A DNA stretch of 64,000 bases from Actinomycetes bacterium (GTDB lineage: Bacteria; Actinomycetota; Thermoleophilia; BMS3ABIN01): assembly GCA_021790115.1 (NCBI GenBank), contig JAJYIM010000002.1, positions 14,804-78,803 of the forward strand, in the 5' to 3' direction. The notes under the pieces are model-generated. The model saw only the letters and a list, made by a program, of their open reading frames with translations. It was not told the DNA's origin and searched no databases. A program made the position numbers and the translations under genes. Shown one piece after another: positions 1-18,559 of this stretch. Position 1 is the stretch's first letter; the number at the start of each line of letters is the position of its first letter.

Positions 1-675
1 AAGGCGGTTGTGGCGACTCGTGATTACACGGACGCCAAGTACCTGGTGATGGCAACCAGGAACGGCATGATCAAGAAGACGGCTTTTCAGGAATACAACA
101 CGGTGCTTAAATCCGACGGCATCATCGCCATCAACATCCGGGCGGGCGACGAGCTGATCGCCGTCAGGCACTCGGCCGGCAGTGAAGACATCCTGCTGGT
201 AAGCGAAGGCGGCCAGGCCATCCGTTTTAATGAGTCTGAGACCAGGTCGACGGGGCGTGCCACCAGCGGCGTCAAGGGAATGAAGTTGCGAGGCGGGGAC
301 CGGGTGCTTTCCATGAACGTGGCCCGCGATGACGCCGACCTGTTTGTTGTTACCGACGGCGGGTACGGCAAGCGCACGCATATCAGCGAGTACCCGCGCC
401 ACAAGCGCGGCGGCATCGGCGTCAAGACGATAAAGCAGACCGAGTCAAAGGGCGGGCTCGTCGCCGCCCGCGTCGTGCGCGATAACCACGAGCTGGTGCT
501 CATCTCCGAGCAGGGCGTCGTTATCCGCATCCCCGCCCAGGATGTCTCCGTCATGGGGCGGGCCACCCAGGGCGTGCGGGTAATGAACCTGCGCCGGGGC
601 GACCGGTTAAGCGCCGTGGCCCGGGTGGTCTCCAGCAAGTCGGGCGCCCGGGAGGAAGAGATCGAGGCGGAGTAA
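1..675 (+). CDS. gyrA: DNA gyrase subunit A, C-terminal beta-pinwheel domain (5' end lies outside the window)
   Basis: Translation shows GyrA C-terminal repeat motifs (MATRNGMIKK..., VKGMKLRGGDRV, GVRVMNLRRGDRL) and an acidic tail. The ORF continues to the window edge. Confidence 0.85.
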   Translation, partial: KAVVATRDYTDAKYLVMATRNGMIKKTAFQEYNTVLKSDGIIAINIRAGDELIAVRHSAGSEDILLVSEGGQAIRFNESETRSTGRATSGVKGMKLRGGDRVLSMNVARDDADLFVVTDGGYGKRTHISEYPRHKRGGIGVKTIKQTESKGGLVAARVVRDNHELVLISEQGVVIRIPAQDVSVMGRATQGVRVMNLRRGDRLSAVARVVSSKSGAREEEIEAE

Positions 676-847
676 GCCGCCCGGCCCCAATGCGAACAAT
701 CGTTTGAGATAGATTTTGCTCCCAAAGCTGCCGCACCGCTGCTTTAGTTTTTCTCCGATCAAACGCTAATGAAAACGCCTTCAATGCCGAAAAAGTTGGC
801 AACGCACGGGCAGTTTTTGTCAATTGTGGCAACCGGGAAGGTGAGCA

Positions 848-1507
848 ATGAGAGCCAGGCAGTTGGGATTTCTTGCAGCTTCGTCTTTGTTGATGGCCGT
901 TTTCCTGCTTGCAGGCAGCTTTGGCCACAACGCCAGCGCCGACGCCTACAGTGTCGGCACCAACGCCTACACTATCGGCAAGGTTAGTGTGAATCCGAGC
1001 ATCGCCATTCCCGGCACTTCCGTGTCACTGACCGGCACGGGCGAGCTTATCAACGCCCAGCTGCAGGTGTCGATGGGCGGTAAATATTCCGATGGCCAGA
1101 CCTACGTGGCGATTCTGGGCACGGCTCCGACCGACAACCTGGGCAACTGGTCGTTTAGCTTCACAGTTCCCAGCAATGTCAAGCGCCTCAGTGATAACGC
1201 CACTATTCCCATCTTCACTGCAGGCTGGCCCGTGGGCGGCACTGCTATCGGCACCGATGGGGGCTTTTATAGTTCTTACAATTACCTGGACGTAAATGCG
1301 AATTCTCAACAGACAAGCACGGCGCCTGCGCCAACAAGCACAAACACCACGCCGACTTCATTTGTCAGCGCCGGCTCTTCAAATACCGGCAGCGGCGCCA
1401 GCCTTCCCAATACGGGCGCAAGGGTGATGGCCCTTGCTCTGGCCGGGATCAGCCTGATCAGCTTTGGCGCCCTGGCCCGGCAGCTGAAGCGTGAGAGATC
1501 GCAGTAA
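848..1507 (+). CDS. LPXTG-anchored cell-wall surface protein (sortase substrate)
   Basis: N-terminal signal peptide (MRARQLGFLAASSLLMAVFLLAGSFG), Thr/Ser-rich linker, then LPNTG, a hydrophobic span and an RQLKRERSQ tail. Confidence 0.7.
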   Translation: MRARQLGFLAASSLLMAVFLLAGSFGHNASADAYSVGTNAYTIGKVSVNPSIAIPGTSVSLTGTGELINAQLQVSMGGKYSDGQTYVAILGTAPTDNLGNWSFSFTVPSNVKRLSDNATIPIFTAGWPVGGTAIGTDGGFYSSYNYLDVNANSQQTSTAPAPTSTNTTPTSFVSAGSSNTGSGASLPNTGARVMALALAGISLISFGALARQLKRERSQ

Positions 1508-13960: not shown

Positions 13961-14155
13961 GCTAAAATAAGCATGAGCTAATTAACCGGCTTTAATCACC
14001 GGACCGACCCCGCCACCATCTTCATCACGATCTTCTCCGGACCCCAGCCGGTAAAGATTACGGCGGCCGGGTCGATATCAAAGGTGGGAAAACCCCGGGG
14101 CGGGCGGAGGCCTTTCCCGTTCTTTCCACAGGGCAGACATGCAGACAAAATTAAC

Positions 14156-17100
14156 ATGAACTGGCTAAAAGGGTTCTTTGGCATTTTCACAAGCCGGCTG
14201 GGGCTGAAGTTCTTCCTGCCCCTGTTTATCATTGTTGCTGTCATGGTAATTCCCATCCTCTTGTACTTCCACTATGAAAGCAACGCCGACATTGCTGCCC
14301 AGTCCGCCCTTGTCAGCAGCGAAAAGGCAACCGCGAGCGTGGCGGCAATTGATAGCTCCGTCAGGCAGGAGATGCTGGACGTTCACGAGGTTCTATTGGG
14401 CTATTACCGGGGCGGGCCCGTCAACCGCCAGTTTGTCACGGATTTTAACGCGGCCGCCGCCGTTGCCAGAAGCAATCACCAGGTGGCGGCCCAATATGCT
14501 TCAAGCAAGAGCGAAAAAGACTCGCTTAGTGAATGTACGGCTCTTAACGGTCAGTTCAAAGCCATTTTCCTCAACCAGGTGTTGCCCCTAACCGGCAGGG
14601 CGGGAGCGAACCTGGCGCCCCTGGAAGGCGAGCTTGACGGCATCTACAACAGGATGCTGGCGGTTCATCAAAACCTGGCCGGCTCGTTCAGGGCCGACCG
14701 GGACGCAACGATCCAGTCCCAGAAAGCTGGCCGGAAATCCGTTGAGAGCTGGGGTTTTGTTGCTGCCATCGCCGGAGCCCTTTTAGGACTGATGGCGGCT
14801 GGCATGTTGGCAAAGCGGCTGCTGGTTCCCATCAAGAACATGGCGGCTGGAGCAAAAAAAATTTCCGAGGGCGATCTTAAACAGCGGGTGCAGGTGAAAG
14901 GCCGCGACGAGATGGCAAGGCTGGCGGATTCATTTAACTTTATGGCCCGGTCGCTGGAGCGGCAGATAATGAAGCTGGAGCAGGAAAAAACGCGCATCAG
15001 GGCTGTTCATCAGAGCATTAATGACGGCATCATCGTGGTGGACTCAACGGGCGTCATTATCTTCACCAACCCGGCCGCCGAGGCGGCGCTGGGCAGGATT
15101 GCCGCCGAGCTTGAGGAGAGCAGCGACACCGGCGTTCCAGGCATCAATGAAATCTTAACCAGCGAGGTAGACCCCGGCAGGATGGTAAAGTGCTGGGAAG
15201 TGAAGGCATGCACCCACCCGGAGTGCTCCTCTTATGGCAGCAGCGATTTAAGATGCTGGCTTCAGTGCAGCACGCATTGCCACAACCAGATTCAGGGAAC
15301 GTTTAAGCAGAAGCGGGACGCCTGCGAGCGCTGCGACGTATTCTATCTCAATGCCGTCCAGACTCTGGATGTAGACATTGAAGGCCGCCACTACAGCGTG
15401 GAGGCCGTCCCCATCCTCGACGACGAAGGCCAGGAGGACGGACGCACCGTCGTGCTGCATGATATGACAGAGTTGCTGGAGTCCAACAAGGAGATGAAAC
15501 AGCGAAGCATGGAGCTGGCCGCGCTCCACGAGATTAGTGAGGCTGCCTCCACCTCTCTGAAGCTTGATGAGGTGTTGGATGCTGCCCTGGAAAAGCTGCT
15601 TGCGGCCTTTGACAGCAGCGCTGCCGGGATTCACCTGCTAAGCCCCTCGGGCCGGGATCTGGAGTTGGTAGCCCACAGCAACATCTCCCCGGAGGTCCAG
15701 CAAGCGCTCAGGCTCCCGCCAAAAGGAAGCAGCATTGCCTGGCGGGTGGTGGAAAGCCGGGAGGAAGTGATTATTAACGACGTCAAGCAGGAAAAAAACA
15801 TGCTGCCGGTCATTGTGGCTGCCGGGTACCGGTCGGCCATGGGAGTGCCCCTGGTTGTCAATGAGAAGGTGATCGGCTGCCTGATTTTGGTGAGTTCCAA
15901 GCCGTCTTTCTATTCCGCGCGTGATGTGCGGCTGCTTAAGCTGGCCAGCACTGCCATTGGCGTAGCGGTGGAGAACTCCAATCTGTTCGATGACGTCTCG
16001 CGCGCCAAGTCCCAGTGGGAGGCTACCTTTGACAGCGTTTCTGAAGGAATCATCGTTGTCGACAGCGGCCACATCATCAAGCGGATGAACAAGGGGGCGG
16101 CGGCGATCCTGGGCGGCAGCATGAGCGACCTTGTCGGCCGCGAATGCCATGAAGTCATCCACGCCGCCCGCATCGTGCCTGCGGATTGCCCCATGTCCCG
16201 GGCGGTGCAAGGACTGGGGCCGATGCACTGCGAGGAAGAGACCGGCGACGGCCGCACTTTGGCGCTCACTGTTGATACGATGTTTGATGAGGCAGGCCAG
16301 GTAATTGGCGCCGTCCACTTCATCCGTGACATCACAGAGATAAAGCGCATGCGCCAGCAAATGCTGCAGTCGGAGAAAATGGTCGCCGTGGGCCAGTTGG
16401 TATCAGGAGTCGCCCATGAGATCAACAATCCGCTCACGGGCGTGATCGGCTATGCGCAGCTGTTGCTGTCCCAGGACCTGGGCGAGAAGGCCAGGGCGGA
16501 CGCCGAGGCCATTTACCGGGAGGCGGAGCGGGCCACCAAAATTGTCCGCCACCTGCTTTCTTTTGCGCGTCAGCACACCCCCGAACGGATGGTCATTGAC
16601 GTCAATGCCGTCTTGAAGGACTCCATCGAGCTGATGGCGTATGACATGCGCGTCAACAATATCAAGGTTGAAACCAGTTACGGCAATAAAGTTCCCGCCA
16701 CCGTGGCCGACCCGCACCAGCTGCAGCAGGTGTTTCTTAACCTGATCGCCAATGCCGAGCAGGCGATGCTGGCATGCCGCGGCTCCGGCGTGCTGAAAGT
16801 CTCCACCCGGAAGGCGGCCGGCATGATCCGGGTTGTCTTTGCCGATAACGGGCCGGGAATTCCGGAAGAGCTGCACGACCGCGTTTTCGAGCCGTTTTTC
16901 ACCACCAAGGATGTGGGCAAGGGAACGGGCCTGGGCCTGAGCATCTGTTACGGCATCTTGGAGGAGTTGGGCGGCGGCATCTGGGTCGAGTCAGGCGAAG
17001 GGCCGGGGGCGGCGCTGGTGGTGGAATTGCCGGTCGTCCCGGCGCCCGTGCAGGTTGAGGACGAGGTGCAGCCGGAAAAACCGGCGGCCCGGCTGGGCAA

Positions 17101-17467
17101 GGTGCTGCTGGTTGACGACGAGGCCGGCATCCGCGACGTCATGACTGAGACGCTGCGCAGCGCCGGGCACGAGGTGGACGCGGCCGGAAACGGCGAGGCG
17201 GCGCTAAAAATGCTGAAGAAAAAAGACTACGACTGCATTGTCAGCGACGTGAAGATGCCCGGCATGGATGGCCCCACCCTGTACCAGGAAGCCAAAAGGA
17301 TGGACCAGCGGCTGGGCGAGCGTTTTATCTTTATCTCCGGCGATTCCGTGGCTCCCAAGACAAGGACTTATTTATCCCGCGTCGGCAATCCCTGCCTGGC
17401 CAAGCCTTTTAACCCGGATGATCTGGAAGAGCAACTGCAAAAGATGCTCAGCCGCATCAAGCGCTAG
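14156..17467 (+). CDS. Hybrid sensor histidine kinase/response regulator (2 TM, HAMP, PAS, Cys-rich insert, GAF, PAS, HisKA, HATPase, REC)
   Basis: [17 protein letters not shown] (HisKA), [12 protein letters not shown] (HATPase), and a C-terminal REC ([12 protein letters not shown]...[14 protein letters not shown]). Likely start is ATG 14156 (MNWLKGFFG); the ORF track starts at 14084. Confidence 0.85.
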
Positions 17468-17497: not shown

Positions 17498-18559
17498 CTA
17501 GGGCACAACATCAATGCGGCCCGTATCATCCTCCGCTTCGATGACGCCAATGCGGGCGGCCGTGATTGCGCCCGCCTGCCTCAGCGCCTGCTCAAGTCTG
17601 TCTGCCTTACCCGGCGGGCATGAGATCAAAAGTCCGCCCGAGGTCTGGGCGTCGGCCAAAAGCAGCCTTTCCGCCTCTGTGATGCCGGCGTCGAAATTAA
17701 CGAAGCGGCGCGCGTATTCAAGGTTCTTCTTGCTGCCGCCCGGTGCGGCGTCCAGGTCAGCATCAATCAAGTCCCGGGCGGCCTGGATTACCGGCACCGC
17801 CCGGGCGTGAATACGGGCGCCCATGCCGCTGGCCCGCGTCATCGCGGCCAGGTGCCCCAGCAGGCCGTAGCCGGTGACGTCTGTGCAGGCGCTGATGCCC
17901 ACAGCCACCATTGCTTCCGCGACCTCCTTGTTTAAGGCGCTCATTACTTCTACCGCCCTGCGGATGGCGCCGCCGCCGGCGGTGCCACGTTTGATGCCCG
18001 TCGTGACAATGCCAATCCCCAGGGGCTTGGTTAAAAAAAGGACATCCCCTGCCGCGGCGGTTGAGTTGTGGACGACCTTGGCAGGATCGATGACGCCGGT
18101 GACAGCAAGGCCGTACTTGGGCTCGCGGTCATCCACCGTGTGGCCGCCGATGATGGCAACGCCTGCCTCGCGCGCCTTGTCGGCGCCGCCCTTCATTATC
18201 CGGGAGAGAATCTCCAGCGGCAGCTGCTTGGTATGAAAGCCGGCAATGTTGAGCGCAAACAGCGGCCTGGCGCCCATGGCGTAGATATCGCTGAGAGCGT
18301 TGGCCACGGCAATGGCTCCGTACTGGTAGGGGTCATCGACCACCGGCGTGAAATAATCGACGGTCTGGATGATTGCCAGATTATCGGAAATCTGGTAAAC
18401 AGCACAATCGTCACCGGTGTTGAAACCCACCAGCACGCGCGGGTCTGTAATTGGCGGCAGCTCTGTGAGAATGGCCTGCAGGTCCGACGGACTTATCTTG
18501 CAGGCTCAGCCGGCCCCATGCGCCAGGCGGGTGAGGCGGATCTCTTCATCTGCGTTCAT
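17498..18559 (-). CDS. selD: Selenide, water dikinase (selenophosphate synthetase) SelD, selenocysteine-containing. In-frame TGA (plus-strand tca 18506-18508) is read as Sec.
   Basis: The ORF track starts at MLVGFNTGDDCAVY, which is mid-SelD. Extending upstream gives MNADEEIRLTRLAHGAG-U-ACKISPSDLQAILTELPPITDPRVLVGFNTGDDC, which is the SelD G-x-G-(C/U)-x-x-K active-site motif. ATG at 18559. Confidence 0.8.
18474..18505 (-). ncRNA. Putative bacterial SECIS hairpin immediately 3' of the selD UGA (mRNA GCCUGCAAGAUAAGUCCGUCGGACCUGCAGGC)
   Basis: 7-bp stem GCCUGCA/UGCAGGC enclosing an inner GUCCG/CGGAC stem. Starts 1 nt after the UGA. Confidence 0.5.

Follow-up and report, generated by a model that had tools for sequence, protein, structure and literature searches.

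NreB and AirS are histidine kinases in which a cysteine-ligated, oxidant-labile iron–sulphur (Fe–S) cluster controls autophosphorylation; NreB senses O2 with a [4Fe-4S] cluster in a PAS domain and AirS has a [2Fe-2S] cluster (PMC8774646). The CZB domain, a cysteine-containing metal module of TlpD and DgcZ, serves as a cytoplasmic redox or oxidant input for chemoreceptors and diguanylate cyclases (PMC6715182, PMC8262984). The present analysis concerns a hybrid sensor histidine kinase of an Actinomycetes bacterium of the Thermoleophilia. It is encoded in a stretch of 64,000 nucleotides (nt) of contig JAJYIM010000002.1 (assembly GCA_021790115.1), called the window here. The PAS domains of FixL and Aer2 (haem) and LOV (flavin) hold the cofactor in a pocket of their own, whereas the first PAS domain of this kinase (PAS1) carries an extra inserted domain of ~52 residues. 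This eight-cysteine segment is real and strongly conserved. Sequence comparison assigns it as a divergent, short-loop, sub-threshold copy of the two-CW domain NF045718 with an eighth cysteine added. It probably acts as a metal-thiolate (Fe–S or Zn) cassette that senses redox state or oxidants and gates the host PAS domain, a reading to which a probability of about 0.6 is given.

NreB binds its cluster through four cysteines that belong to the PAS domain proper and have the spacing C-x2-C-x11-C-x2-C. The window kinase resembles NreB as a cytoplasmic histidine kinase with an N-terminal metal sensor, which is proposed as a functional analogy. It differs in that its seven to eight cysteines are located in a separate inserted domain and have another spacing; no sequence relationship was found. 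The two halves of PAS1 (amino acids (aa) 304–365 and 421–465) have no cysteine, so a four-cysteine PAS core of the NreB type is absent. CZB and the two-CW module have a similar range of partner domains. However, CZB folds as a bundle of four helices and binds Zn by three histidines and one cysteine, whereas the two-CW module is loop-rich, with seven cysteines and no conserved histidine. The Pfam CZB model had no match among 120 extracted copies of the module at E-values (E) up to 10. The Fer4-clan motif C-x2-C-x2-C-x3-C-P is absent from the window sequence. The eukaryotic zf-CW domain gave no Pfam match at E up to 10, and the shared letters CW are a likeness in name only. The resemblance to NreB, AirS and CZB appears to be one of function, not of homology.

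Residue numbers refer to the 1127-aa open reading frame (ORF) from GTG 14084. Eight of the 17 cysteines of the kinase are located within 48 residues (aa 370–417, nt 15191–15334), and the other 1079 residues contain nine (0.83%). The binomial probability of eight cysteines per 48-residue stretch is ~7e-9, and ~7e-6 over the whole protein. A preliminary description made from the sequence alone had drawn attention to a cysteine-rich 51-aa peptide inside the hybrid kinase ORF. The peptide is encoded at nt 15188–15340 on the plus strand and has the spacing described: C370-x5-C376-x4-C381, followed by C391-x3-C395-x3-C399-H400 and by C414-x2-C417. The count of eight cysteines was correct; instead of two histidines, there are three (378, 398 and 400).

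The same description could not assign the segment to a named domain, but a name exists: NCBIfam NF045718, the two-CW domain. The segment matched this model with 26.1 bits (E 8e-6) as a 77-aa and 26.9 bits (E 5e-6) as a 59-aa sequence, at a curated cut-off of 35 bits. The match spans positions 2–75 of the 80 model positions. The seven cysteines of the family are present in the family order together with both Cys-Trp dipeptides (C370-W371, C376, C381, C391-W392, C399, C414 and C417), and C395 is the additional cysteine. The cysteine columns also align with those of named stand-alone two-CW proteins. All 120 extracted module copies, the window copy included, matched NF045718 at E <= 0.01, with a best E of 8e-15. 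Stand-alone proteins of ~100 aa keep the same seven cysteines; one is named 'two-CW domain-containing protein' by NCBI. Their loops are about x14 and x20, compared with x4 and x9 in the window copy, and this difference in loop length explains why the short-loop form scores low. The window copy further differs from the NF045718 family by C395, by a serine that replaces the near-invariant Pro382, and by its position inside a PAS domain rather than in a stand-alone protein. The domain is already catalogued by NCBI; new is the short-loop, eight-cysteine, PAS-embedded variant.

A HMMER (phmmer) scan with aa 296–482 against 1.84 billion representative proteins yielded 1810 matches at E <= 1e-3; the proteins searched were representatives of 50%-identity clusters, and part of the matches cover the PAS flanks only. 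Many matches cover query residues ~69–130 only, the cysteine module alone, often at the extreme N-terminus of the matched protein. The module is present in 114 of the best 150 proteins. A word-indexed homologue search found one protein at first and, with the module profile, only short stand-alone proteins. No Pfam model for the two-CW module was found in scans of the kinase and of the 120 copies, and a profile search with E up to 10 detected no related sequence in the PDB. Matches to DUF2769 (5/120 copies) and bCoV_viroporin (8/120) all had E >= 0.03 and were taken as noise. No paper on the two-CW domain came up in literature searches by domain name, accession or signature peptide, and broader keywords gave nothing relevant.

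The module copies, about 120 in number, originate from several phyla. C370, C376, C381, C391, W392, C414 and C417 are invariant in the 120-copy alignment; at least 90% of the copies also have P382, T397, C399 and K410. The consensus is K-C-W-E-x3-C-x4-C-P-[AS]-Y-x-S-x-[DN]-L-R-C-W-[LQ]-x2-G-T-x-C-x3-[IV]-Q-G-x-F-x2-K-x3-C-x2-C-x-V-[FY]. Among the conserved residues beyond the cysteines are E372, R390, W392, T397, Q404, G405, F407 and K410. Conservation of the cysteines in orthologues had been suggested as a check, with loss among homologues as a reason to abandon the sensor idea. All eight are invariant in 11 orthologues at 42–58% identity. In the window sequence and 34 genomic loci, 35/35 sequences have the seven core cysteines and 34/35 have C395, with the restriction that one pattern used to retrieve the loci itself contained C414 and C417. 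Most family copies have Ser or Ala at the position of C395, and the eighth cysteine is specific to the Actinomycetota kinase clade. The histidines were considered as ligands and rejected: none of His 378, 398 and 400 is conserved in family copies, orthologues or genome loci. A chance cysteine-rich linker or low-complexity loop, which has the short length of the segment in its favour and nothing else, is practically out of the question. It is refuted by the module alignment with its signature conserved across phyla, by the cysteines kept in orthologues and genome loci, and by the binomial probability over the whole protein.

The segment had been placed between the PAS and GAF domains. Instead, it splits PAS1, the remainder of which follows the cysteine-rich stretch. 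The Pfam PAS match at aa 304–342 spans profile positions 2–40 of 113 and is broken off by the cysteine segment. The identity of the host as a PAS domain is given by a Pfam PAS score above the gathering threshold and by the PAS fold. A sequence search of the PDB aligned the two flanks of the segment to residues 22–64 and 84–149 of an Aer2 PAS chain. In-silico excision of aa 366–419 merged two PAS_4 fragments into a single match of profile positions 3–108 of 110. The AlphaFold2 model of aa 296–482 was built with a 120-sequence alignment, as the prediction from the single sequence reached a predicted local distance difference test score (pLDDT) of 43; it has a pLDDT of 94.8 and a predicted template modelling score of 0.85. 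It consists of an N-cap helix, two strands, three short helices, the mostly coiled module, three long strands and a long C-terminal helix. Within the module, the chain is mostly coil across the seven to eight cysteines with short helices, and C-x2-C is located at a helix start. The module is thus cleanly inserted as a domain into PAS1, after helix E and before strand G. PAS cofactors usually attach on this side of the fold, which is the helical one. The last helix of the module probably serves as the F helix of the PAS domain.

PAS1 is complete without the module, which marks the module as an add-on. This point was raised in favour of a role without any sensing, in which the insertion binds Zn for structural reasons only and, as a knob stapled by the metal, stabilises the PAS domain or makes it dimerise. 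Such a role would agree with the loop-rich fold and its C-x2-C where a helix begins, which recalls treble-clef and ribbon Zn sites, and with the lack of a canonical Fe–S motif and of a Fer4 match. However, many residues other than cysteines are conserved too (the eight named above), and the module also occurs alone, in tandem, at N-termini, after chemoreceptor signalling domains and in CheW. A staple has no reason to track signalling proteins, and the structural role is considered unlikely.

The partners of the module are signalling domains. Among 97 module proteins, Pfam found PAS in 49, HisKA in 44, HATPase_c in 42, HAMP in 17, GAF in 15 and GGDEF in 13; CheW (5), REC (5), HD-GYP (3), MCPsignal (2) and STAS (2) are rarer. 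Architectures include a tandem pair of modules followed by GGDEF, dCache followed by the module and a kinase core, an N-terminal module ahead of PAS, GGDEF and EAL, and the signalling domain of a methyl-accepting chemotaxis protein (MCP) followed by two C-terminal modules. The module is embedded in a PAS domain, as in the window, in 26/120 copies, one of them from a Nitrospirota bin. A CheW domain is likewise split by the module, between profile positions ~76 and 77, in four proteins (P0069, P0148, P0043 and P0050), and in-silico removal of the module restored a single CheW match at profile positions 1–137 of 138. PAS and CheW are unrelated, and the module recurs in both as an inserted cassette.

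Stand-alone module proteins have 60–107 aa. Some of their genes adjoin genes of soluble MCPs on the same strand (L047 4001–4276, L048 454–729 and a contig of JGI 3300075153), and such pairs occur in two unrelated contexts. They look as if an MCP-two-CW fusion had been split in two. A 100-aa stand-alone protein (L038 5001–5303) is encoded in a bacterial microcompartment (BMC) operon with BMC shell genes, EutN, PTAC, aldolase and aldehyde dehydrogenase, just downstream of a BMC shell gene and a gene for an RnfC/PduS-like Fe–S flavoprotein. At L039 3881–5321, a stand-alone gene comes after genes for OsmC and rubrerythrin and a 101-aa ORF without annotation, and faces a formate dehydrogenase/NuoF-like Fe–S gene cluster on the opposite strand. 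Other stand-alone genes are divergent from a large hybrid kinase gene or located among housekeeping genes. A sensory role of the module is supported by the signalling partners, the stand-alone proteins and the MCP gene neighbours. A 92-aa protein at L025 749–1027 (plus strand) has a two-CW-like pattern with only six cysteines and without the cysteine of GT-x-C. Its gene directly follows a gene for a sigma-70-type factor, 3 kb upstream of a kinase paralogue.

A genome scan was performed with the kinase-clade alignment, and the taxonomy of the broad family rests on source names only. The scan detected 37 loci, nearly all in Actinomycetota genome bins (Thermoleophilia or Gaiellales, mostly from subsurface or groundwater); a few are recorded only as uncultured bacteria. 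Several genomes encode at least two kinase paralogues with a PAS-embedded module (L001 and L024, L002 and L027, L004 and L025), and the cysteines are kept in all kinase paralogues examined. L001 and L002 share synteny with the window across 8.5 kb (~79–81% nucleotide identity), which makes the bacterium of the window their relative, and the order proA, kinase, selD is conserved. The source names of the module proteins are mostly of anaerobic or subsurface origin and include Thermoleophilia-like Actinomycetota, Nitrospirota, Thermodesulfobacteriota and Deltaproteobacteria.

As a redox or oxidant sensor, the module may work in the following way. The cysteines would hold one or two metal centres, either Fe–S cluster(s) or Zn, because a fold that is so poor in regular structure has to be cross-braced. 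If the metal is oxidised, nitrosylated or lost, the module would change its shape and thereby alter the distance or angle between its two PAS-anchored ends. The beta-sheet of the PAS domain and the C-terminal helix would carry the change on to GAF, PAS2 and DHp, and the autokinase activity would shift. Fe–S and Zn-thiolate are almost equally likely as the cofactor, with Fe–S slightly ahead, and other cofactors share the remainder. Fe–S is favoured by the mostly anaerobic hosts, the Cys-Pro dipeptide, the seven or eight cysteines that recall 7Fe/8Fe ferredoxins and the redox gene contexts, namely the two stand-alone copies beside the RnfC/PduS-like Fe–S flavoprotein and beside rubrerythrin and OsmC. 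Zn is favoured by the absence of a canonical Fe–S motif and by the C-x2-C at a helix start. Seven cysteines in the family or eight in the clade would suit 3+4 or 4+4 ligands within ~50 residues, as in 7Fe/8Fe ferredoxins. The cassette would confer redox responsiveness on a host, whether it is located in a surface loop of that host (PAS in kinases, CheW in chemotaxis scaffolds) or is a separate partner of an MCP. With some reserve, the module may be viewed as an uncharacterised class of Fe–S sensor for redox, O2 or NO, or as another redox-active metal-thiolate sensor, portable as a cassette and widespread in anaerobes of several phyla.

The cysteines might also act without a metal, as a thiol/disulfide switch whose reversible disulfides report cytoplasmic oxidation, as for ArcB or RegB. 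Dense, invariant cysteines in a cytoplasmic protein of mostly anaerobic hosts agree with such a switch. The conserved number of seven is odd, though, and with almost no regular secondary structure in the model, folding in the reduced, metal-free state is unlikely. The disulfide switches known to us use one or two cysteines, not seven, and this explanation is improbable. The Cys-Pro dipeptide could bind haem or another small ligand like a haem-regulatory motif, with the other cysteines in a structural role. C381 is followed by proline in 103/108 family copies, Pro382 is also present in all 34 related genome loci, and PAS domains often bind haem. But the window copy has Cys-Ser at this position and yet keeps every cysteine. 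To our knowledge, haem-regulatory motifs need no six further invariant cysteines; haem binding is very improbable.

Several observations weigh against the metal-thiolate sensor cassette. We infer metal binding, the type of metal and the sensed signal. The cysteine spacing fits no canonical Fe–S or Zn motif. Among the Fer4 models of Pfam, Fer4_6 matched 1/120 copies (E 0.17) and Fer4_2 1/120 (E 1.2), and neither matched the window copy. The window copy stays below the cut-off of NF045718, and the NCBI pipeline would leave it unlabelled. It has Ser382 (nt 15224–15226) for the near-invariant proline and Ser396 (nt 15266–15268) where 92/108 family copies have glycine. The preponderance of anaerobes rests on few named metagenome bins. 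The kinase neighbours proA, selD, aldolases and an MFS transporter offer no functional link and no clue to a regulon, and the genes flanking the kinase include no response regulator gene.

The idea of the preliminary description, a metal- or Fe–S-binding redox or metal-sensing module, is reasonable and unproven. Its sensory part is supported by the context and its metal part is putative; the histidines that were counted with the cysteines are not conserved. The idea would have had to yield to a match with a known Zn-ribbon. It withstood this test, as no Zn-ribbon, Fer4, CZB or zf-CW match in Pfam and no PDB sequence was found.

The layout of the kinase is summarised in Table 1. With GTG 14084 as its start, the ORF has 1127 aa (14084..17467, plus strand). 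The true start is likely ATG 14156, judged by identity with the 1103-aa database protein P0002, and the first 24 codons of the longer ORF are probably untranslated. The start at ATG 14156 (MNWLKGFF...) sits just ahead of the first hydrophobic segment. The HAMP domain directly behind the second hydrophobic segment places all downstream parts of the kinase in the cytoplasm. After the strands of PAS1, a long helix (aa 462–481) runs to the GAF domain.

Table 1. Hybrid sensor histidine kinase gene and its domains in the window (nt positions of the window; aa numbering of the ORF from GTG 14084).
Feature	Position (nt)	Residues (aa)	Strand	Remarks
Hybrid sensor histidine kinase gene	14156..17467		+	1103-aa form from ATG 14156; database protein P0002
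HAMP domain	14807..14959	242–292	+	PF00672, 57 bits; directly after second hydrophobic segment
PAS1, N-terminal half	14993..15178	304–365	+	Strands A and B, helices C, D and E; Pfam PAS, profile positions 2–40 only
Two-CW module	15188..15343	369–420	+	NF045718 match, module alignment, orthologues; mostly coil, short helices
PAS1, C-terminal half	15344..15478	421–465	+	Strands G, H and I, ends in HDMTE motif; PAS_4, profile positions 75–108
GAF domain	15560..15973	493–630	+	Pfam
PAS2	16028..16342	649–753	+	Uninterrupted; Pfam
Kinase core	16388..17035	HisKA 769–830, HATPase_c 876–984	+	Pfam
C-terminal receiver (REC) domain	17102..17437	1007–1118	+	Pfam

A side observation concerns the neighbouring gene selD for selenophosphate synthetase (Pfam AIRS and AIRS_C; 17498–18559, minus strand). 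It has an in-frame TGA at nt 18506–18508, and the ORF list gives the gene only as a truncated ORF (17498–18436). The TGA is located in the motif RLAHGAG*ACKISP, the canonical selenocysteine/cysteine position of SelD, and SelD itself is therefore probably a selenoprotein in this bacterium.

The inputs of most bacterial sensor kinases, chemoreceptors and cyclic di-GMP enzymes are unknown, and as an input domain, the two-CW module is widespread. If redox-active metal binding is true, it would give hundreds of signalling proteins from anaerobic bacteria, and from those of the subsurface and of sediments, a candidate signal. The insertion into the unrelated PAS and CheW domains illustrates how nature couples domains allosterically by inserting one into another, and the module would offer a compact part of ~50 residues for redox-switchable protein engineering.

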